DNA of 64,000 nucleotides from a virus, in the IMG/VR virus record IMGVR_UViG_3300028534_000015, positions 92,171-156,170 of that record. One strand, written 5' to 3'. How positions within the stretch are numbered: position 1 is the stretch's first letter; every line of letters starts with the position of its first letter. A program made the position numbers and the translations under genes. The notes under the pieces are model-generated. The model saw only the letters and a program-made list of their open reading frames with translations, was not told the origin of the DNA and ran no database searches. Shown piece by piece: positions 11,742-63,405 of the stretch.

Positions 11742-12036
11742 ACTATGGATTATATTTCCTCTCATATGGCTCCAGGGTTGCGTATTTGAGCCTAAACCAC
11801 AAAAACCAAAGATAATACACACAACGCCACCTAACTCTCTTCTAAGGCTATATAGAACACCGCAACCACCCGATAAAAATAACTACTTATCATTGTCTGA
11901 AAAAGATAAAGAACTTGTTTTGGCAGATTATACGGTTGACCTACTCACAACAATAGGTAAGTATAAAAGACAAACCATTAAACTTCGTAAATGGAAAAAC
12001 GAAATAAAGAAAAAAGAAAATAGTAAGGAAGAGTGA
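11731..12036 (+). CDS. Putative outer-membrane spanin lipoprotein (Rz1-like)
   Basis: GGAGG RBS before ATG 11731; signal peptide with lipobox WLQG-C, then Pro-rich segment (TTPPNSLL...TPQPP). Confidence 0.75.
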   Translation: MLNRLWIIFPLIWLQGCVFEPKPQKPKIIHTTPPNSLLRLYRTPQPPDKNNYLSLSEKDKELVLADYTVDLLTTIGKYKRQTIKLRKWKNEIKKKENSKEE

Positions 12037-12055
12037 GACTTATGTCTCACTCTTC
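12028..12055. terminator. Hairpin at a convergent gene junction
   Basis: GAAGAGTGAGAC-TTAT-GTCTCACTCTTC. Confidence 0.7.
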
Positions 12056-12402
12056 TCTTCATCTTTTTTAAACTTAATGTTATTAAGCGTGTGATATGTT
12101 GCTTCATCTTCACGCTCTCCTCTAAGTCTTATCTTAACTGTTATTGAAAACTCAACAACATTGAGAGCATTCTTTAACAGGAAGATAAATTTATTAAAAG
12201 ACATTTCTGTTAAAGCAAAATCTGCTTTAATGTTATGGGTTGTAGACCCCTTTATGCCTTTTTTATTGTTTTCTGATATATACTTGTTCACAATATCTTG
12301 CCAAGTGTATATCAGTCCTCTATCCGACAATATCTTTCTAAATAACTTAGCCAATATGTTTCCTGGCTTCGTTATTTTAATTTCGTCTTCCCGCAGTTTC
12401 AT
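12040..12402 (-). CDS. Small basic hypothetical protein, phiKZ-like family
   Basis: 120 aa; GNILAKLFRKIL...MSFNKF pattern; AAGGAG RBS; TATATTAT motif upstream. Confidence 0.55.
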   Translation of the reverse strand: MKLREDEIKITKPGNILAKLFRKILSDRGLIYTWQDIVNKYISENNKKGIKGSTTHNIKADFALTEMSFNKFIFLLKNALNVVEFSITVKIRLRGEREDEATYHTLNNIKFKKDEEKSET

Positions 12403-12495
12403 TAGTTCTCCTTTTAAGGCGGGATTGGGGAAGAGTATTTCGCGACTACACTCTTAAACCCAAAATAATAATATATATATGAAAAATACTCGATA

Positions 12496-14577
12496 TCAGC
12501 TTCTCAAATAGAGACCTGAAGTATCGAATATTGCTCCTGTGAGAGTACCAAATGTTTTACCTAACAATGAATCACCAGTTAACATACCAAGATATGATGG
12601 AGATGTCAATGCTTTTACACCCATCACAGCTCTTGATGTTTGCAATAACCCATTCCTAAATGCGTATCTTGTTGTATGGTAATCCCTTCCGGCAAATGTA
12701 GATAAATATTTGTTAAGTGCGTTATTGTCATCAAGTCCTATACCGAAAGCACCTAACAACGATTGTTTAACAGGTGCCGCGAAGTACTCTGAAAAATCTT
12801 TTATTGTAAAAATTATTTCAATTCCTAGTGTTTTCCCGTCTTTAGAGAAGGCGATATTATTTACTGCTTTCTTAATTGTAATCGATGATATCATGCCAAA
12901 ATCAATGTTAAGTTTACCTCTTAGAAAGGCTCTACATAGTCTTGGAGATTGATATACATTCTGACCAACTCCTTGCGGTAATGTACCAGCTAAAAGTGAC
13001 GATAAAACTAAATCTATATCCATAGATTTTGAAATTACATTTCCATAAGGCGGAGTAGCTACTATCTTAAATGATTGTTCTGGTAAATTAACATTACTAT
13101 CAGACCACATTTTAGGGAAGTTCATATAGCCACCATTTGTCAACGCCATAATGACATTTGATAAACCAAATGTGACTTGATCTAATGTTCCAGCGACAAC
13201 ATCTTTAATTCCATCTTGCATTTTCTTGACAGTATAGCCAAAAATATTACCGCCACTTGTACTAAACCGTAGGTCTCTTGCTGCACCACCTAATTCTACA
13301 AATTTAGATTTAGCAGGAATATCTTTAAATTCATTCGAAGCCGAAAAGTCTGATGGATTAACATATTCTACAGTTAACATCAATGTCTGTCCACCGTCTT
13401 TAATAGTAGACATAGTTGCTTCTGCATATTCTTTAACTGTTTCTTCTGCTAACTCAAACGGGAATTTCAAATATCTCCATAAATTATCAGGTTTAAGATA
13501 ATCTACAAGATCTCCACTAGAAGCTGATTCAGCTTTCGGTAGATCTTCTTCAGCTTGTGTTTTTTTAGAATAAAAGAATTCTGATTTATCTTTAATAGCT
13601 TTAAGATATGCTTCATAGTTTACTTCTCTATCAAGTTGACCAGTAGCTTCGTTAAGAACACCATCAACTTGTGATTTAATAAGTCTTGTTGAGTTAAATG
13701 CAATTGTTTCACGCATAAGTTGTCTGTTTACTTCTACTTGTGCTCTTTGTGATATAGCAAAAACATCTATGTAGTTTGTTTCACTAAAAATTGCAGGAAG
13801 TGTCTCTTTTAAAGGCGCTAGTAAGTTACCGTCAACTTTTAGGGGAAGTCCTAGTTTGTTTTCTGCATCGCTAGGTGTAATTCCTGGAAGTAATATTCCG
13901 CGTTCTGTAGCCAAGTAGTTATGTATAGCACTTACAGACGCCCAGTAATCTGGCATGTTAGGTTTAAAATGATAGTATCTAGTATCACCATTACCTACAA
14001 ATGCTTTAAGTCCAAAAATACCCGCATATACCAAAGCTACATTTACATTAAGGGTTACTATTTGTCCTAGTACACCTATAACTTCTCCTACCGTATACCA
14101 TTTCGTATCTCTACCCTCTTTTGCAATAACAGATTTTTGATAATCTGCAGAACGCGCATAAAATGATAGCATAGATATAAATTCAGGAACCCCAAATTCT
14201 AGAACAAGTATTTCTCTGTTTACATCTATATAGTCACCGTAGCATCTCCCAACACCGATATTCCAACCGCTTACTTTATCATTTTCTATTTTAAAGTCTG
14301 CAGGACCGAAACCTTTTGTTCTGTCAAATCTCCTACCCATTCTCGGAATATCTGCATATCTTGTAAATTGATATTCTGGGTTAATTGTAAGAGACCCACC
14401 GATAGATGTATCGGTCAACATTCTATCTGAAAATGATGAAAAAATATTTACTCTTGCTTCTTCGTCTAGTTTTTTAAGATCAACAATAAAAGCATCTGTT
14501 AACCAATCTGAATCAAACACATTAGCTAAAGGATCTGTGTAAGTTATGGTTGACTCACCTGTATTAATAGTTGGCAT
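12496..14577 (-). CDS. Tail/baseplate virion protein, phiKZ gp182-like
   Basis: 693 aa; TDTSIGG..INP..QFTRYADIP, FGVPEF, FPKMWSDS, PYGN.IS motifs. Confidence 0.65.
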   Translation of the reverse strand: MPTINTGESTITYTDPLANVFDSDWLTDAFIVDLKKLDEEARVNIFSSFSDRMLTDTSIGGSLTINPEYQFTRYADIPRMGRRFDRTKGFGPADFKIENDKVSGWNIGVGRCYGDYIDVNREILVLEFGVPEFISMLSFYARSADYQKSVIAKEGRDTKWYTVGEVIGVLGQIVTLNVNVALVYAGIFGLKAFVGNGDTRYYHFKPNMPDYWASVSAIHNYLATERGILLPGITPSDAENKLGLPLKVDGNLLAPLKETLPAIFSETNYIDVFAISQRAQVEVNRQLMRETIAFNSTRLIKSQVDGVLNEATGQLDREVNYEAYLKAIKDKSEFFYSKKTQAEEDLPKAESASSGDLVDYLKPDNLWRYLKFPFELAEETVKEYAEATMSTIKDGGQTLMLTVEYVNPSDFSASNEFKDIPAKSKFVELGGAARDLRFSTSGGNIFGYTVKKMQDGIKDVVAGTLDQVTFGLSNVIMALTNGGYMNFPKMWSDSNVNLPEQSFKIVATPPYGNVISKSMDIDLVLSSLLAGTLPQGVGQNVYQSPRLCRAFLRGKLNIDFGMISSITIKKAVNNIAFSKDGKTLGIEIIFTIKDFSEYFAAPVKQSLLGAFGIGLDDNNALNKYLSTFAGRDYHTTRYAFRNGLLQTSRAVMGVKALTSPSYLGMLTGDSLLGKTFGTLTGAIFDTSGLYLRS

Positions 14578-17659: not shown

Positions 17660-20600
17660 CTAGCTTTTCCATATTTTTATCATTTGTTCTTGAATAAGAA
17701 CAACGCCTGTTGTTAAAAGTGCTGTAATGTCAGCGCTCTCTACAATTCTATTGTCTTTAGATTTTGTAGAGAACTTAAGATCAATTGGTCTTCCATCTTT
17801 TGTTCTTACTTTATTATCATGATTGGCAGAAACCGTGAACTTTAGCTGATTTCCAAGAACACCTTTGTCTCCATTAGTAAATCTTAAAGGTTTTTCGATA
17901 TAGATTTTAATCTCTACTTTCCCTTCTTCTAATGGTTTCCCTTTAATAGAATAAGATGAGTTCACTCTAAATTCTATATTGTGTTCTTCTTCTAACGTAG
18001 TTACAATTTTCTTTAGTGAAGCAGAAAGTTCTTTCTTCTCACAGTTGTAAAATACTTTGATGTTTTTTACATATCCATCTTTTTCTGCTTTTGGTGATGC
18101 GTTTCTAGACTCCTTAAGGATTCTTTCCGTCTCTTCATCAATGACATTCATAGTGCCTTCACGTACTTCAACGTTTTTAAAAATAGATAAAATAGGATCA
18201 TGATATTTAACATAGTCACCTATGCTAACCAAATTCTTTATAACGTCTTTAGCGTCTACAACTATAGATCGTACTTTTGTTAAAGGTGTTGTTAACTTAT
18301 TACCGAAGTTAGGTGATACTGTCGTAGAGTCTTCATATGTTTCATCTATCTCTTGGAAAGCAACAGTTGCCAAAACACCTGTTTTTATAGCTACGGCTTT
18401 TTTATCATAAATATCTCTCTCGAAGAATAACGTATCAAATGCTAAAATTTGATCTTTTTCAAACCTAGAACCTTTTCTAAGATCTGTGTCTAGTCTGTGC
18501 ATATACGTGATGCCTGCTTCTTCTTTTGTATTCCACTGCTTAAACTCAATTGTTTCTGTTTTCTTATCTACATACAGAACAACAAGTTTTTTATCGGAAA
18601 CACTTTTTACGATCCCGTCTAATCTCGCCTTTTTGATAAACTTTGAAGGTATTCTATCACCTATAACTGTATCATAACCTGTTGATACAGGAAGAACAAC
18701 AGCATATAACATAGGAACTAAGTGACCATTCATAATGGATGTAAAGTTCATACGTTTCAAATCATCTCTATTGTTAAACGGAGCAAGCATTGTAGAAGTA
18801 CTCATAATGTTAACCTCATTGAGTTCTTCAATAGGCTTGACATCTACAATACCTCTTGTATTTTTTAATTTAGGCGCTGCTGAACTGTAAGCAGTGATTC
18901 CTACATCTCCACTATCTTTTACTGATTCCGATGTTATTCCTATTTCAGATTCATGAATCTCTCTTGCTTCACCAACAACAGTTTCTTTACTTCTACCGAA
19001 CTCTCCTGTTAGAACAATGTCCTCATACTGCTTTAACATAGCAATAGGATTAAGGTCCTCTTGTAACATCGTCGCACTATCTTCATTCAATTTTCTCATT
19101 GTGTCAAAAGGGTTTACATTAACAGTATTATTATATGTTCCAACACCGTTATAAAAACTTCTAATAGCATCAACGTTTGTTTTATACATCATACCAGCTA
19201 TTCTATCATACTGTTTAATCATCATATTTTTGATGTTGTTAGGATGATTAACATAGTCAGTTGTTAAAATTTCACACGCTCTAAGTAAGAGCTCTCTAAA
19301 TATAACTGGTTCTTTAATAAGCTCTAAGACTTCTTTTGTAATAGGATCTATAAACATCTTATCCATTAAGAACATTTCTGTTACTTGGTATTTAGACATT
19401 CCTATCATATAACAGAAATCAACAAGACCGCCATGTGTTGAAAACTCTGAAAAATCTATGTTTTGTAGTTCTTTTAATTCAGTTAATCCATAAAGTACTA
19501 AACCTATAATAGGTTCAGAATTTTCTATCTTTAACATTGTGTCTCTAAATTTGATATAAAAATAGGACCCGTCTCCCTGTTCTTTTATTCTGCCTGAAAC
19601 TTTTTCATACTTAACATTAAGTCTTTTTAAAAGACCTCTAAACCCATACATATAAGCTAAGAATAAACCTACAGGTAGTTCAAAGCCTTTTACTCTCACT
19701 GTAGCAAAATCTAAAGGAAGAATGCTTTTATTTATATTAAAAAACTTATACATATCAATATCGAGATTTTTTAATTCACCTTTATGATATGTGTAAATAG
19801 TATTATTCATATCTATAAGATAGTAAGTGTTTCCTTTCTTACCAAATAGAACTTTGTCTTTTCCTTCCATTTTTTTAAGGAGTTTTTTATCTCCATTCTC
19901 TACCTGTTTAGATCTTTTATGATAGTTAAAGAAACAGACAATACCGTTTATCCTAACCATAGACATAAATCTTCCAAATAGAGTGTATTGATAAGGAAGT
20001 TTGACTTCATAAATTTCGTTTTTAGACTCAATGACAAGATTGACGCTACTATCTTTGTTTGTAGCTTCTGTCTTAAGATACTGCATAATTTTGTAGCCTC
20101 TATCTTTAGACTCTAGTCTTGAACGTTCTACAAAGAGTTTTCCGTAGAATGAAGATAATGATGATTCACTTCTAGAAATCTTACGTATAGGCAAATCTGT
20201 CTTTTGTTTACGCATAATATATGTATTACCACTTTGCATAAACGTTCCATCTTTTTTAAGACCGGGAATAATATGTCGAATAATCTTTTTATTACCGTTT
20301 GGTAAAACAGTATGAAGTGTGTAAGTTTGCTCTTCTCCTAAAACTGTATTTTTCTTTTCTATAGTGAAATCTTCAACAAGTATACCTGCAGATTGAATCG
20401 AAACAGCTATATTCTTAATGTCTGTCTCGTATGTTTCCTCAATATACTTTTTCATAAAAGGTGTGAGTGTGTCTTCTAACATTGTTTTATCGTCTACAGT
20501 AACACGGTCATTTAACTTAACGTCTTCTTTTCTTAACTCAATTACTTCTTCTGGTATTTTCTCAACTTTGAATTTAGAGTTTTTCAGTCTTTCTTTCAGA

Positions 20601-26400: not shown

Positions 26401-29339
26401 ATTCTTTATTAAAGAAAGAAGATAAAAAACTTGAGTTTTGGTCATATCTCACTAATAAATTCAAACGCGAAGAAAAGGAGAAGAAAGAAAAGAAAAAACG
26501 TTCGTTCTTTGATAAAGACGGAGACGGTAAACGTAACGGTAGTTGGATGGAGTATTTTGAAAGAAAAGGCAAAAAGAAAGATAAAGAACCAACAAAAAAA
26601 GAGATAGAAGAAAAAGACAAAAAGTCTGGCGGTTTATTTTCTATGTTGGGTTCTATTATCAAGTTTGCAACTTTCCCTATAACAAAAACATTAGGTGGTA
26701 TTTTCTCTGGACTATCTGGTGTTAAAACTATTCTAGGCGGATTAGGATCCATGCTTGGTGGTATTGCTGGCGGTTTGGGATTTGCGCCTTTAAAACTTGG
26801 TTGGTGGGCGACTAAGAATCTCACTAAAGGTTTATTTGGTTTAACAAAGATAATAGGGAAATCAGCATTAGGTAGTGCAAAAGTTCTTGGTTCTGGTGTT
26901 AGTGGAATTAGTAGTCTTGTTTCATCTGTAATAAAAGGAGGTAAATCTCCGGTAGTTAAGAAGTCACTTAAGCTTTTAGGAAAGTTTGTTAAATATGTTC
27001 CTGTCATAGGACCTATTTTAGCACTAGGTCTTGATTTCGGTCTTGATTATTTCTTCGATGATGCTGAGCTACCTGAAGACATCATGAACCCTAACGGATC
27101 TAAAGACAATGAGGTTACACCTAAAAAAGTTGTTGCTAAAGATACAACCATTGGACTAACAGATGATCTTAAACCGTATAAAGAAAAAATGACAGAGTCT
27201 TCTAATCAATACAGAAAACTTCTTTCAGAATACCAAAATGAAAAAGATGATAAGAAAAAGAAAGAGCTTTATGGTAAACTAGAGCAATCCAGAAAGAATA
27301 TGTTGAAAGATGTAAAAACGTATCAAGAAGCATATCGTTCCAAACAAGAAACAGGAAAAGTGTCTGTAAGTAATAAAGATATGTTTAAACCTGTTTCCGA
27401 CCCTGCTGGATATGCTGGTAAGAAACTCACAGGTTTAGCAAAAACATCAGGAACGATTACAAGAATTGTAGAGGCAAAAAACAACTATGCTTCTGCGCAT
27501 ATTCTTAAAGGAGAATCTTGGGTATCGTTTGGTGCATATCAGTTCATTGAGAAATTCGGTCATATTAGAAATGTTCTTACTATATTACTTAAGAAAAAAC
27601 CTAAGTATGAAGAAGAGTTAAAAACTATCATACGTGGTTTTGGAAAAGACGGTATGTATCAAGGAAGTAGAGAGTATCTTATAAGTTTCCTTAAACGAAT
27701 AGGATTTACTCCAGAATCTATACATGCGCAAGACGAGTATTTTTATAAGGAGTTCTTCCTTAAAGGACAAAAGATTGCGCATAGTGCAGGACTTAAAGAT
27801 AACTACACAGTTTTACATATCATTGACCATTATCATAATGCAGGACCTATGGCAGCTAAAACTGTAGCTAAAGCTACTGCTAAAGTAGGCGACACTTTAG
27901 ATAGTGCTGTCAATGCTAGAATTAATTGGTATAGATCAAAGAATTCTAACTATGTTCAAGCATGGGTAAATAGAGTAAATAAAGTCTCTAAACTTATGAA
28001 AGGTCTCACAAAAGGAACTGATTATAAAGTCATCTCTCCTGAGACATACAATCAAACGTATACGTCGTCAGATTCGTCTACAACGTCGTCTAACGACACT
28101 ACATCTACTGGTATGAAGTCAAGAGTTTTAGACGGTATTAAGGGCATTGTAGAGATGTTTAAAGAGATGTTTGGATTTAATCAAGAAGCAACTGATAGTC
28201 TTATTGGTCCAGATGCTGTTGAAGTTGAAACAAGTAGTTCTACAACAGATATTTCAAACAACCCTTTAAGAAGAAACAACGCTACAAAATTTAATCCACT
28301 CATTCATGATTGGAAGACAAGTAAGCGTTACGATTCTCTTAATGAAACAGCACAGGAGTTTTTTGCTAAGTTCTCGCATTTTGTTGAACCATACGGTATT
28401 AAACTTATGATACCAAAATATGGAGGAAATAGACATCCGGACAACCAAAAACATCTTTATGCTATAGGTAGAACTATAGAGAAACATAGAAAACCTGTGA
28501 CATGGACATTAAAATCTAAACACATTGGTGGTGCAGCGATCGACATCATTTCTCTTAAAGGTTTTAAAGACGTTAAAACGAATGCTTCTATCGCAAAACT
28601 TATGCGAGCTTTCGCAGACGCTAATCCAGAGTTTCAGGCACATTTCTTAAATATCGAAAAAGACCCTAATCATGTTGACTTTCCTAAATCAAAAAAGATA
28701 AGACCTATCAATGTGGAAGCGGAAATAGATGGTGTTAAGAACCCTAAAGAAGAACAAAAGAAAATTGAAGAAGCATATACCCAAACAGAGAAAGCTAAAT
28801 CTGTTAAGTCTTCTCCATACACAGGAACGTCTCTAAGAGGTGTAATAATTCCTGAAGACCATAGATTAGAAAATGCGTTAGGCAATAAGAAGAGTCCTAC
28901 TACCAAAAAACGCATTCCTGCTTCTGAATATAAAGGAATGGTTAGTAGTGTTATAACAAATGTTCCTCCAGAAGTTTCTGAAATTGAACATAAAAAGACA
29001 GATAAAAAACCTGTTGTTACACAACAAACTAATCCACATACATTTAACAGACAGTTAAAGGAAGCAAAACAAGCAGTACAAACACATGTTAAGACAACTG
29101 ATACATTAGAGAAATACATAGATAGAAACGGAAAGACATTAATCAATATACATTCTGTTCTTGTAGATATCTACCGTACTAATTTGGATATGTTAAAGGA
29201 AATGAAAGAAAAAGGTTCTGGAGAACATAAACATAATGATAAAGACGGATATGTTGCATATGATCCACATATAACACAGAAGAAAAAGAAACCGAGAGTA
29301 ATTACGGAACCTTCTGTCGGTGTGGATACAAGTGTTTAA
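23457..29339 (+). CDS. Tape measure / lytic tail protein, phiKZ gp181-like, with lysozyme-like and M15 peptidase domains
   Basis: 1960 aa; LELQY, KNTALPDFVK, VIPGLLAKIL, DKDGDGKRNGSW; Gly-rich hydrophobic segment; SFGAYQF; SKHIGGAAID...DPNHVD. Confidence 0.85.
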   Translation: MSDEFDDFDDFDLDDDVKESGSDREPVEGALKEGAESFKESLLEDDEIGKKAAVGIGKTLATNLVGDKTVSRLTETTGSFVDEFEKSVSEIRKESRPIAKAIRSISPDQDSVVGQVTHKLADIIGGEEGEGGNSGEQSYDELLSERVNSALSSLTLNREKDEIDKELATEAMKFKQMNDQITLLQSIATDMSSSSNFLRKSTLEFYKKQLELQYKQVFISGDIRNILASGFDRLGKEQDIIAKNTALPDFVKMRSSEALHAAIRQKMHDSMIQTFIGKNDWMDNLKRNILGRFNASKDKIKDSVTGISGIIQDIEEANSQLEDAGMSKSSMAGDLAGDAVKEKGFGVIGRALAKSPFARKITGDLIQMSTSMPEYLDKVSNKHGDNVIGKTASFFRDLMRNPLESTDTGLGVGGLDQPTIFDGRTKTSIVTVIPGLLAKILNSVEKLKNKNAETLHFNYTKGKFERESAFDRSFDEEVKLKMFTSGGVKAIDTFVSKLQDNVGKKSTLYLDPKEVRNFKRILYKYVMSNNSLNPEYFEDAGLYDNMNPVMATKIRGLIKRYLYKDGSLNQERFDSLSTTLRSASSGIFNPTKFLEDKKDSGEIEFLEKKGLVKFDPHRQEYVLDMKKYLSYSEGFVNSVGSQGYEDYLFNRNVSKENEETINKSEPTSLLDVVKAAKDDIKKIDPDKAKDATKKGFKKFVKTAKDLDEKVANMSKSDWSELGIDTKNKALKFITDNYDKNVSDEYKKKIDESLNYVFNSKGYTYLESKIKDAHSYLKDNDRKSILDDLHRLKRKGLVKSRKFIKTVKALKVEDLKFAGINTYEDAVKHVTGIYGDHDIKTLKKIEKILQDKYDDFNKDETQNYFSKKWNKFKSRLRGEKSRVISKFNKVLSHFKGWTYDDFDKLGITNANDAVRHILNTIDFTPTKKEMRQLYDTMSNIFTVRDTVNKTNDFVSNKKSSFKKTFDKKKQEVKDNVKKPSWLDSLLKKEDKKLEFWSYLTNKFKREEKEKKEKKKRSFFDKDGDGKRNGSWMEYFERKGKKKDKEPTKKEIEEKDKKSGGLFSMLGSIIKFATFPITKTLGGIFSGLSGVKTILGGLGSMLGGIAGGLGFAPLKLGWWATKNLTKGLFGLTKIIGKSALGSAKVLGSGVSGISSLVSSVIKGGKSPVVKKSLKLLGKFVKYVPVIGPILALGLDFGLDYFFDDAELPEDIMNPNGSKDNEVTPKKVVAKDTTIGLTDDLKPYKEKMTESSNQYRKLLSEYQNEKDDKKKKELYGKLEQSRKNMLKDVKTYQEAYRSKQETGKVSVSNKDMFKPVSDPAGYAGKKLTGLAKTSGTITRIVEAKNNYASAHILKGESWVSFGAYQFIEKFGHIRNVLTILLKKKPKYEEELKTIIRGFGKDGMYQGSREYLISFLKRIGFTPESIHAQDEYFYKEFFLKGQKIAHSAGLKDNYTVLHIIDHYHNAGPMAAKTVAKATAKVGDTLDSAVNARINWYRSKNSNYVQAWVNRVNKVSKLMKGLTKGTDYKVISPETYNQTYTSSDSSTTSSNDTTSTGMKSRVLDGIKGIVEMFKEMFGFNQEATDSLIGPDAVEVETSSSTTDISNNPLRRNNATKFNPLIHDWKTSKRYDSLNETAQEFFAKFSHFVEPYGIKLMIPKYGGNRHPDNQKHLYAIGRTIEKHRKPVTWTLKSKHIGGAAIDIISLKGFKDVKTNASIAKLMRAFADANPEFQAHFLNIEKDPNHVDFPKSKKIRPINVEAEIDGVKNPKEEQKKIEEAYTQTEKAKSVKSSPYTGTSLRGVIIPEDHRLENALGNKKSPTTKKRIPASEYKGMVSSVITNVPPEVSEIEHKKTDKKPVVTQQTNPHTFNRQLKEAKQAVQTHVKTTDTLEKYIDRNGKTLINIHSVLVDIYRTNLDMLKEMKEKGSGEHKHNDKDGYVAYDPHITQKKKKPRVITEPSVGVDTSV

Positions 29340-32735: not shown

Positions 32736-32790
32736 TTTTATTTTCCTTATATAGTATTCGTTTTTATAATATATAAACAAATTAACACCG

Positions 32791-47955: not shown

Positions 47956-48032
47956 TTAAATCCTTTTTTTTTTAATTTTAACTTCTTCCGGATTGAAGTC
48001 AATGATATAATATATAAGTAAAAAAAATACCA

Positions 48033-60743: not shown

Positions 60744-60785
60744 TAGCTTTAAAGCACCTCTTTTTAAGTCATTTTTATAATATAT
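60744..60785 (-). promoter_or_regulatory. Repeated early promoter/leader element, copy 1
   Basis: + strand TAGCTTTAAAGCACCTCTTTTTAAGTCATTTTTATAATATAT, near-identical to 63361..63405; contains TATATTAT on the - strand. Confidence 0.7.
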
Positions 60786-60845: not shown

Positions 60846-61421
60846 TTACAGGAGTCGGTAAATTTTAAAAGTAAAATAATCTATTAAGACATACATAATT
60901 AATAACATAGATAGACCGATATATTTATCGATATTTAAAAATGAAACAGACATCGCTAAACCGTATCCAAACATTCCAAAAACTGTCTTAATGTTTGTTT
61001 CTTTGTCTCTAACAAAATCCATAATTTTATGCGGACTTCTAAACTCTTTTGTTATGTAAACGTAGAAACTATTAAAGAATATTGTTGAAAATAACATTCT
61101 TAATGGTTTTGTTATAAGACTCATAATAACAAAACTGTCCATACCAAATATGATACCGACTATTAAAACTATGGTTGATAAAATATCTGATATTAGACCA
61201 ACCAAAACATGTGTCTTAAAATTAGGAATTATTTTCTTTACTCTATTATAAAGTAGCATAAATGCAGAAACTGTAAACATAGATATAGAAATAATAAACT
61301 CAACTTCGTTTTCGTTTCCTAATAGTTTATATGACGATGTCATATATGCAACAAACAATCCTATAAAAAGATTGGACAATATATGAATTCTCAAATAGTT
61401 AACAATTATCTCTTTCTTCAT
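60846..61421 (-). CDS. Multi-pass membrane protein
   Basis: 191 aa with about 5-6 hydrophobic helices; GGAGG RBS. Confidence 0.65.
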   Translation of the reverse strand: MKKEIIVNYLRIHILSNLFIGLFVAYMTSSYKLLGNENEVEFIISISMFTVSAFMLLYNRVKKIIPNFKTHVLVGLISDILSTIVLIVGIIFGMDSFVIMSLITKPLRMLFSTIFFNSFYVYITKEFRSPHKIMDFVRDKETNIKTVFGMFGYGLAMSVSFLNIDKYIGLSMLLIMYVLIDYFTFKIYRLL

Positions 61422-61446
61422 TCTTCCTCCAAAAAAAAAATATTTT

Positions 61447-61654
61447 TTCCTGTTTCGGAGTCTTAAGACTCCGAAACAGGAAGACGTCTTGCTATTTGAG
61501 CGGCAAGACGTCTTACTCTGTCTGTCATTGTTCCGTCAATGACAGACAGAGTGAATCTCGATTCACTCACGCGAGTTAAAATAACTCGCGTGTTAAAAAT
61601 TTTAATTGTCATGATAACTCCTTTCTGATCTATCACTCATGACAATGATAGATC
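61447..61654. repeat. Array of back-to-back inverted repeats (structured RNA or cruciform locus)
   Basis: Stems at 61447-61482 (36-bp perfect palindrome), 61481-61514, 61515-61552, 61549-61568, 61568-61592, 61593-61605, plus alternative pairs 61605-14/61637-46 and 61627-35/61646-54. Confidence 0.92.
61463..61612 (-). CDS. 49-aa Arg-rich ORF inside the hairpin array (not in ORF track)
   Basis: AAAGGAG RBS then ATG 61612; MTIKIFNTRVILTRVSESRFTLSVIDGTMTDRVRRLAAQIARRLPVSES*; TAA at the apex of the 36-bp palindrome. Confidence 0.55.
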   Translation of the reverse strand: MTIKIFNTRVILTRVSESRFTLSVIDGTMTDRVRRLAAQIARRLPVSES

Positions 61655-61688
61655 GTTGATTTATACTATAATAATAATATATAAATAA

Positions 61689-62219
61689 CTATTTTTGAGA
61701 TATCCATTCGTGTCCGTTTAGAAGTATTTTTTCATTAACAGATTGATCACTTAGTAAGAACTTTTTATATTCTCTAACTAATTCAGTTTCGGTCGGTATT
61801 TCTTTATCTATAATAATTTTTCTCATGATTTCAAATTCAAACTGGTCCGCATCGCTATCAATTACAAGATAAACAAAAACATCTCCTTCTATGGTCTTGA
61901 TATAAAACCCTACTGTATCTAAATCATCGCTAATAGACGTCATCTCTGCTTTCTTTTTTAAGAGTGCGGAAATGATATCAAAAGACGACTTTGAATTACA
62001 TACGACTATGAGTGAATCAAATACTGTGGTTAAAAAAATATTGTCTTTAATTTCCCTTACTGTATTGTTTTTTAAAACAATAACAAACTTTGACTTATTT
62101 AAATATACAGATAATTCTGTTTCTGTCACTATTGTATTTTTAAATGTTTTCTCCCATATTGTTAGTCTTGTTCTTTTTTTAAAGAAAGGATCTTTAAAAA
62201 ACTTTGTAAAATTCATCAC
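61689..62219 (-). CDS. Hypothetical protein
   Basis: 176 aa, AAAGGA RBS. Confidence 0.55.
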   Translation of the reverse strand: MMNFTKFFKDPFFKKRTRLTIWEKTFKNTIVTETELSVYLNKSKFVIVLKNNTVREIKDNIFLTTVFDSLIVVCNSKSSFDIISALLKKKAEMTSISDDLDTVGFYIKTIEGDVFVYLVIDSDADQFEFEIMRKIIIDKEIPTETELVREYKKFLLSDQSVNEKILLNGHEWISQK

Positions 62220-63360: not shown

Positions 63361-63405
63361 TAGCTTTTTAAAGCACCTCTTTTTTAAGTCATTTTTATAA
63401 TATAT
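63361..63405 (-). promoter_or_regulatory. Repeated early promoter/leader element, copy 2
   Basis: + strand TAGCTTTTTAAAGCACCTCTTTTTTAAGTCATTTTTATAATATAT. Confidence 0.7.

Follow-up and report, generated by a model that had tools for sequence, protein, structure and literature searches.

How can a stretch of 208 nt be folded almost completely into hairpins and at the same time be read as a gene, and what would such an element do for the virus that carries it? This question is raised by positions 61447-61654 of the window analysed here, a 64,000-nucleotide stretch that represents the final 64 kb of the 156,170-bp viral metagenome contig IMGVR_UViG_3300028534_000015. The contig (G000, the genome under study, as distinct from its relative G001) has an estimated completeness of 58%, which corresponds to a full genome of ~270 kb. 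Overlaid on the hairpin array is a 49-codon open reading frame (ORF), ORF49, on the minus strand, on which all features of the locus described below lie unless stated otherwise. An earlier reading of the letters, in the following called the original prediction, had proposed either an early-expressed, almost fully paired RNA with a dual function or a cluster of DNA cruciforms. Our results lead us to favour, tentatively, an early RNA with a dual coding and structural role, in which the terminator gates the gene behind it; template switching probably made the stems and kept them perfect.

Each of the inverted repeats that had been listed for 61447-61654 is present at its position, and one additional hairpin, H0, was found. 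The region thus holds six abutting hairpins, of which five are perfect, with stems of 18, 12, 16, 9 and 11 bp; neighbouring perfect stems abut or share 1-4 nt. H0 (61627-61654; 11 bp including one G-U pair, 6-nt loop) is the 5'-proximal hairpin of the predicted transcript. It is followed by H1 (61568-61592; perfect 11-bp stem, 3-nt loop, -15.5 kcal/mol), by H2 (61549-61568; perfect 9-bp stem, 2-nt loop, -7.8 kcal/mol), which has 4 nt in common with H3 (61515-61552; perfect 16-bp stem, 6-nt loop, -25.7 kcal/mol), by H4 (61481-61514; perfect 12-bp stem, 10-nt loop, -17.1 kcal/mol), each arm of which contains a nested 10-bp palindrome, and finally by H5 (61447-61482), a terminator-like perfect 36-bp palindrome (18+18, no loop, -27.0 kcal/mol). 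A trivial A/T 6-mer palindrome is located at ~61593-61605.

The density of these hairpins is far from what would be expected by chance. A comparison with dinucleotide shuffles, which the original prediction had proposed as a check, gave a folding energy of -111.5 kcal/mol for a 266-nt stretch on the minus strand (shuffles -53 kcal/mol, z = -14.2) and of -106.5 kcal/mol on the plus strand (shuffles -46 kcal/mol, z = -14.1), and none of the 200 shuffles folded as well as the real stretch. Order-1 shuffles of the whole 156-kb genome contained 15-18 perfect stems of at least 9 bp; the chance expectation is ~0.02 such stems per 208 nt, compared to six observed. The array is also the densest hairpin spot of the genome, with perfect stems of at least 7 bp covering 62% of 300 nt against a genome mean of 5.5%. 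Two further features of the original description were confirmed: the array is richer in G+C than its flanks (39-43% versus ~25-27%, in a genome with 32%), and the stems all differ in sequence, with none recurring elsewhere in the genome. Among the long perfect hairpins of the genome, seven are loop-less palindromes, versus ~3 expected according to an estimate made by hand for RNA tetraloop hairpins. This excess hints that DNA symmetry, beyond RNA folding alone, shapes the hairpins.

The array could not be assigned to a known family, as had been anticipated: no Rfam, Pfam or PHROG family fits it, an Rfam search of the whole window gave no hit at gathering thresholds, and a search at E up to 1 returned only sub-threshold hairpin look-alikes. 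The only direct repeats detected are those arising from the palindromic arms. Clustered regularly interspaced short palindromic repeats (CRISPR), repetitive extragenic palindromes or bacterial interspersed mosaic elements (REP/BIME), an iteron origin and an attC array were rejected because the stems all differ, with no repeated unit and no other genomic copy. A nucleotide search of the locus against the phage collection gave no match; one arm-and-loop pattern of the 16-bp stem was not found in the metagenome collection, nor one of the terminator stem in the viral collection.

The position of the array relative to transcription signals provides the second line of evidence. The TATATTAT motif that had been noted at 61674-61681 is present on the minus strand and lies within the early promoter core ATATATTAT (61674-61682), with a predicted transcript start 6 nt downstream at ~61667/61666. 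From 61688 to 61666 the minus strand reads TTATTT-ATATATTAT-(6N)-A-G, in which a T-rich stretch replaces the upstream AAAT of AAATATATATTAT-(6N)-G+1, the early consensus that the virion-carried RNA polymerase of Bacillus phage AR9 recognises (PMC5312081). In every copy of the core in which it was readable, the start base 6 nt downstream is A or G. The core ATATATTAT shows a pronounced strand bias (17 minus versus 1 plus in G000, 22 versus 3 in G001), an A/T-rich upstream flank is kept by ~15 copies in G000 and ~17 in G001, and many copies come after a perfect-hairpin terminator and a T run. Both contigs encode pieces of a split multisubunit RNA polymerase; Pfam profiles PF00562 and PF00623 matched above their cut-offs in G000, while in G001 PF00562 was above and PF00623 just below the cut-off (23.4 vs 25.3 bits). 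Judged by its sequence, G000 is a giant phage related to AR9 through its transcription system.

The claim of early expression was therefore upheld in so far as promoter core and spacing match the AR9 virion RNA polymerase consensus and the unit is closed by a terminator-like hairpin and its U run. The stretch is predicted to represent a complete early transcription unit, laid out from promoter to terminator, with an RNA of ~235 nt that would be almost wholly paired. Strong folding (z <= -4.9) was found in 5 of the 15 early promoter-proximal regions of G000, compared to a median of -0.6 for random segments. On the opposite strand, two consensus promoter-like sites were called at 61639-61672, with no excess over shuffles (6 vs 6.9). 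Copies of the core in the window are found on the minus strand only (~63397-63405, 61674-61682, 60777-60785, 48007-48015, 32766-32774 and 12468-12476), and some of them sit directly behind a hairpin terminator and T run as terminator-promoter modules.

The leader of the predicted transcript is short, with a gap of 13 nt between the predicted start (~61667) and H0. In the fold that contains H0 (-14.6 kcal/mol), the ribosome-binding site and the ATG stay unpaired; other early leaders of this genome likewise begin with a hairpin. The AAAGGAG site pointed out by the original prediction was read from the sequence at 61618-61624, 5 nt ahead of the ATG, and sites of this type also precede other genes of the genome. 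An alternative leader fold (61605-61646), in which 61637-61646 pairs with 61605-61614 over a perfect 10 bp, encloses both the ribosome-binding site and the start codon; when forced, it reached -11.7 kcal/mol, 2.9 kcal/mol from the H0 fold.

ORF49 (61463-61612; ATG at 61612, TAA at 61463-61465) comprises 49 codons plus stop, carries hairpins H1-H5 and would encode a basic mini-protein with, as described before, eight Arg and one Lys. Its codon log-likelihood is +0.17 per codon, compared to -0.13 to -0.99 in the other five frames and an off-frame 95th percentile of -0.27. AlphaFold2, run on the single sequence with no alignment, gave a model of three strands and one helix with a predicted local distance difference test (pLDDT) score of 86.5 and a predicted template modelling (pTM) score of 0.60. 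ORF49 is probably translated. The protein has no match in Pfam, PHROG or the ESM Atlas, no paralog in its own genome and no match in G001, and a Foldseek comparison of its fold with the PDB gave no usable match (best E = 1.9). A HMMER search against 1.84 billion representative proteins returned only ORF49 itself and chance hits to tandem-repeat proteins (418, 1777 and 3015 aa), which were rejected; the two inspected, of 418 and 3015 aa, represent a weak match multiplied by tandem repeats. We also rejected an origin from G+C-rich foreign DNA, since the codon statistics fit this genome, and a type I toxin-antitoxin system, since ORF49 is basic and not hydrophobic and the promoter-like sites on the opposite strand are no more frequent than in shuffles.

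The stop codon of ORF49 lies at the apex of H5; between 60700 and 61800, no site other than H5 was called terminator-like (shuffles give 0.2). The call consists of 16 pairs (8 G-C), a 4-nt loop and the tail AAAATATTTT followed by more U; the tail at 61431-61446 comprises four A, then U-A, then ten U. Immediately downstream is an ORF of 191 aa (60846-61421; ATG at 61421) with its own GGAGG site (61426-61430), the product of which looks like a multi-pass membrane protein according to hydrophobic runs in its translation. The next early promoter after 61674-61682 is found at ~60777-60785, i.e. past the 191-aa gene, and none was found for that gene itself; the early promoter would therefore reach it only via read-through of H5.

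A scan of the whole contig showed that the array is not the only one of its kind. Outside the window, at genome positions 27010-27418 (L005 1511-1919), the gene for a 370-aa helicase harbours nine perfect hairpins (stems of 9-16 bp); the helicase is identified by Walker A, DECH and TAT motifs and by the Pfam families Helicase_C, DEXQc_Suv3 and DEAD. The nine hairpins fall within codons 33-169 and run through conserved motifs, whereas 300 synonymous-codon shuffles averaged 0.24 and never exceeded 4; the 5' part of the gene folds at z ~ -13 relative to synonymous shuffles. No gene besides the helicase has more than two such hairpins in this genome. An intron or insertion was rejected as an explanation because the protein aligns with its homologs over the full length through the array. 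Among cultured phages, the helicase has no close relative. Of the relatives found, the nearest is the viral contig G001 (164,667 bp), whose helicase is 48% identical. Its single array (115007-115372; L007 4636-5001) is the densest of all, with ten perfect hairpins and 80% coverage, and occupies codons 14-136 of a 589-aa ORF that follows the helicase gene. An ortholog of this gene is present in the independent assembly L019 (~12190-12560). Because the two proteins (58% identical) align from their Met-Arg-Gln-Val start through the array, the array lies in translated sequence.

All three arrays are located behind an early promoter, starting 15, ~160 and ~380 nt from the predicted transcript start, fold with z-scores of -13 to -15 and are richer in G+C than their own genomes (39-48% vs 32-36%). 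No comparable array was found in the first 100 kb of AR9 or in four other contigs with this helicase. The proposal of an early dual-function RNA hence survived in part. The early unit and the combination of structure with coding are backed by the codon statistics, the confident fold and the two sister arrays on undoubted genes. Nothing supports the more specific roles of a decoy, an antitoxin mimic or a processing substrate, as we found no repeated unit, no hydrophobic toxin and no antisense partner.

Several further structured regions were noted in these genomes. At genome positions ~19650-20096, the first ORF (~170 aa) behind an early promoter at 20096 opens with a looser fourth chain of mostly imperfect hairpins, which occupies its first 300 nt; the fold of the first 250 nt has z = -8.4. 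The ~330 nt of leader that separate the early promoter from the 589-aa gene (L007 4265-4595; L019 ~11830-12150) appear by eye to be much better conserved in DNA than the coding sequence behind them. This leader has no Rfam match at E up to 1 and may be an uncatalogued structured RNA. The codons around the DECH motif of the helicase form a palindrome (stems 8-14 bp, 6-nt loop) in four lineages (L007 3283-3312, L019 10278-10311, L020 10310-10339 and L008 3362-3383), and the same spot in the G000 helicase holds two overlapping stems of 8-9 bp. In addition, G001 has an ORF-free gap of 350 nt (92927-93278), located upstream of a promoter-like motif of the early type, in which several perfect hairpins and runs rich in G are found.

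The orthologous pair G001 and L019 allowed us to compare conservation of pairing with conservation of sequence. The helicases of the two are 82% identical, whereas DNA identity over the array region is only 53%. Nevertheless, 58% of the pairs of the G001 array are still able to pair in L019, compared to 34-40% in controls in which the partner was slid and 38.5% (maximum 52%) when the geometry was moved downstream. Two-sided compensatory changes were found in 26 pairs; the 500 controls averaged 7.8 and reached 17 at most. The hairpins of L019 are weaker and are found at the same codons as those of G001. This comparison indicates that pairing rather than sequence was kept between the two.

At the same time, an insertion and a rewritten segment of the peptide fall on hairpin arms of G001. 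Through template switching, perfect stems can arise and be maintained, and two-sided changes can be produced in one step (PMC8794818); quasi-palindrome mutations increase in highly transcribed DNA (PMC3820800). The Watson-Crick symmetry of the stems, their lineage-specificity and the rewritten arms fit such intrastrand template switching and are also compatible with a role at the DNA level. The tendency to fold is furthermore not confined to the arrays. Ordinary coding segments of G000 and G001 fold better than their synonymous shuffles (median z ~ -1.5, some at -5 to -10, compared to ~ -0.6 in AR9), so that the arrays represent the extreme of a wider trend rather than an entirely separate state. 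The G+C content of the third codon position is not specifically raised in the arrays.

Based on these data, we propose the following sequence of events for the dual coding and structural RNA. The virion-carried polymerase would start at ~61667 and make the RNA of ~235 nt, on which the hairpin chain would fold as the transcript emerges, protecting and stiffening it. H0 would serve as a 5' protective hairpin, like those of other early leaders, and the choice between the H0 fold and the start-hiding leader fold might set the translation rate of ORF49. H5 would end most transcripts, leaving the gene for the 191-aa membrane protein to be expressed only via read-through; a ribosome at the stop codon of ORF49 may melt H5 and thereby increase it. 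The perfection of the stems would result from intrastrand template switching at replication, one arm being copied from the other. In this way the hairpins would constitute a second, selected layer of information over the coding sequence, in a lineage-specific class that is also found on the helicase and the 589-aa genes.

A wider generalisation appears possible to us, if doubtful: perfect, mutually unrelated hairpins, densely arrayed over the opening few hundred bases of early genes, might form an undescribed class of cis-elements in AR9-like giant phages, made by template switching and kept by selection on pairing. Such a class would act on the transcripts of the virion RNA polymerase or on the displaced DNA strand, with a stand-in for ribosome coupling, a block to R-loops or RNases, and the timing of early gene shut-off as possible roles. 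ORF49 would then be the extreme case, in which the stems shape the protein sequence itself. In the literature searched, no dense array of this kind, with perfect hairpins unrelated to each other, was found for the 5' coding parts of DNA-phage early genes.

A number of observations weigh against the dual coding and structural RNA and explain why we propose it with reserve. The codon score of ORF49 falls under the 5th percentile of real genes, and an open frame over such an array would arise by chance with a probability of 0.056 for the given frame and of 0.14 for any sense frame. The second-position G+C content of ORF49 is 0.48, compared to 0.24-0.35 in neighbouring genes, so that the Arg, Ser, Thr and Ala content of the peptide appears to be dictated by the stems. 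ORF49 and both neighbouring genes have no relatives against which covariation at the locus itself could be judged. The sense and antisense folds of the array are equally stable and the pairing is almost purely Watson-Crick (2-9 G-U among 78-148 pairs across the arrays); with such strand-symmetric pairing, action at the RNA level and at the DNA level are inseparable. Selection at the RNA level would be expected to tolerate G-U pairs, and therefore the lack of a wobble excess among the L019 states (13 G-U versus 15 A-C on the sense strand) also counts here. The helicase array is not shared by relatives, in which the same codons are 35% paired against a background of 25%, with 11 compensatory pairs versus ~10 in controls. 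Regarding the gate, the U run begins 6 nt past the H5 stem, although a short spacer ahead of the U run is also seen in other terminators of this phage, and no antiterminator pairing that competes with the H5 arms was found in the folds or the repeat list. Finally, the transcript, the protein and the termination of the unit are themselves predicted from the sequence.

Several of these observations would be accommodated by a DNA-level element, in which cruciforms or single-strand hairpins serve as a replication or R-loop origin, as a programmed break or recombination hot spot, or as a supercoil-sensitive gate before the phage gyrase operon, transcription and ORF being secondary. Strictly Watson-Crick pairing that is equally good on both strands, an ortholog comparison without sense-strand wobble bias and several loop-less palindromes, which an RNA hairpin does not need, would all be expected for such an element, and the arrays are found among replication genes (gyrase A here, the helicase, and helicase plus ribonucleotide reductase beside the array in relatives). 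We nevertheless regard it as unlikely. The at least two strong arrays of this genome and the one of the relative each follow an early promoter directly and run in the sense direction of a gene, which also disfavours the origin, packaging or resolution site of the original prediction, and frame and protein are maintained through the arrays. The stems are all different, with neither iterons nor shared motifs. The G-C skew, which had been suggested as a way to recognise an origin, breaks only with gene orientation and not at the arrays, bearing in mind that the contig covers ~58% of the genome and that phage origins need not show skew. A functionless by-product of mutation, which we likewise consider unlikely, would differ from the dual coding and structural RNA in that a promoter-proximal, heavily transcribed hot spot of template switching perfects chance quasi-palindromes and holds their arms identical, and selection removes only those that damage the protein. 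Perfect stems with nested palindromes, the lineage-specificity of the arrays (with the helicase array unpaired at the same codons in relatives), G001 arms that coincide with an insertion and rewritten peptide, and the mild genome-wide folding excess in coding sequence are all compatible with this explanation; so are the two-sided changes that template switching makes in one step (PMC8794818) and the rise of quasi-palindrome mutations with transcription (PMC3820800). It would leave unexplained why a dense array is found at only 3 of the ~32 early promoters that were scored across the two genomes, why hairpin positions are kept at 53% DNA identity with 26 compensatory pairs, and why arrays exceed their genomes in G+C (39-48% vs 32-36%). 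Moreover, nine hairpins through conserved helicase motifs represent a cost that is unlikely to have been fixed by drift alone.

The remaining explanations concern the reality of the frame and of the locus. If the ~235-nt RNA were a purely non-coding early small RNA, such as a structured regulator, sponge or decoy, the frame would have arisen by accident from G+C-rich palindromes; in favour of this, the 0.14 chance of an open sense frame, the missing relatives of ORF49 and its codon score below that of typical genes could be cited. Since the best fold leaves a correctly spaced ribosome-binding site and ATG unpaired, one frame out of six scores as coding, the single-sequence fold is confident and the sister arrays are certainly translated, we judge this to be quite improbable. 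An assembly or amplification artefact, i.e. fold-back chimeras in a metagenome contig, might be suspected as the locus comes from one assembly only and the collections searched contain no further copy. It is, in our estimation, very improbable: promoter, ribosome-binding site, ORF, terminator and downstream gene form a coherent unit, similar arrays occur in independent assemblies from other samples with conserved proteins in frame, and fold-backs give one large inversion instead of six different short stems.

The genes around the array are all on the minus strand. The array is flanked by the genes for the 191-aa protein (60846-61421) and a 176-aa protein (61689-62219); neither product has a confident Pfam or PHROG match or relatives among viral contigs, and the 191-aa protein matched only itself in a search against 5.8 billion proteins. 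The gyrase A gene, ~1.5 kb downstream of the array, has no close match among viral contigs. A search for tRNA and tmRNA genes was negative.

If the hairpins are functional, a phage with a double-stranded DNA (dsDNA) genome can load a second, structural code onto protein-coding sequence at a density of up to 50-80% of the bases, in one case through conserved helicase motifs, and pairing persists as the protein diverges. This would bear on the way in which RNA polymerases delivered with the virion of giant phages deal with their first transcripts, as well as on the reach of template switching in phage genes and the origin of small new proteins from palindromic DNA. If they are instead a by-product, the arrays mark hot spots of template switching that are tied to early transcription. 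In either case, the ~235-nt unit provides a small and concrete object for reporter testing.

Among known systems, the early units of AR9/PBS1 are the closest. They have the same promoter core and start spacing as the unit described here (PMC5312081), early operons in these phages often open with a small ORF and close with long perfect hairpin terminators, and AR9 and the present phage both possess multisubunit phage RNA polymerases and a phage gyrase. AR9 differs in that hairpin coverage in its first 100 kb peaks at 0.45, over an intergenic A/T-rich stretch that folds at z = -4.4, and in that it has no counterpart of ORF49. Leader-peptide attenuators and other bacterial leaders that contain a terminator resemble the unit in their short ORF within a structured leader and in a terminator ahead of the regulated gene, and with the stop codon inside the terminator, translation could open H5. 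An assignment to this class was rejected, as no mutually exclusive helices were found and only the stop codon in the apex of H5 fits; the best Rfam leader match, a Phe leader, scored 23.5 bits against a cut-off of 55 and on the wrong strand. In contrast to attenuators, the locus has no antiterminator that we could find and no regulatory codon run, it contains four extra perfect hairpins without a role in an attenuation scheme, and it would be transcribed by a phage polymerase, which may or may not be coupled to ribosomes.

Clusters of palindromes in DNA are known from the homologous regions (hr) of baculoviruses and the injection-stop region of phage T5, and REP/BIME likewise pack many inverted repeats into a few hundred bases. 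These clusters consist of one repeated unit or are non-coding, whereas here all stems differ and carry an open frame. A library of docking sites for DNA-binding proteins was set aside because no stem recurs in the genome, and N4-type hairpin promoters because the present stems greatly exceed 5-7 bp and have no sequence in common. The coding sequence of RNA viruses contains embedded replication elements and hairpins for packaging. As in these, compensatory and largely synonymous change keeps pairing within a translated region; the difference lies in the dsDNA genome, the perfect and strand-symmetric stems, the dense arrays of unrelated hairpins and the absence of a known binding protein. With respect to the origin of the stems, the quasi-palindrome mutations in rII of phage T4 are an example of template switching. 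The template-switch hairpins described in PMC8794818 share perfect stems, nested palindromes, two-sided changes and a peptide rewritten at the arms with the arrays studied here. Those hairpins are single events scattered over genomes, whereas the arrays of the giant phages concentrate 6-10 hairpins within a few hundred bases behind a given promoter.

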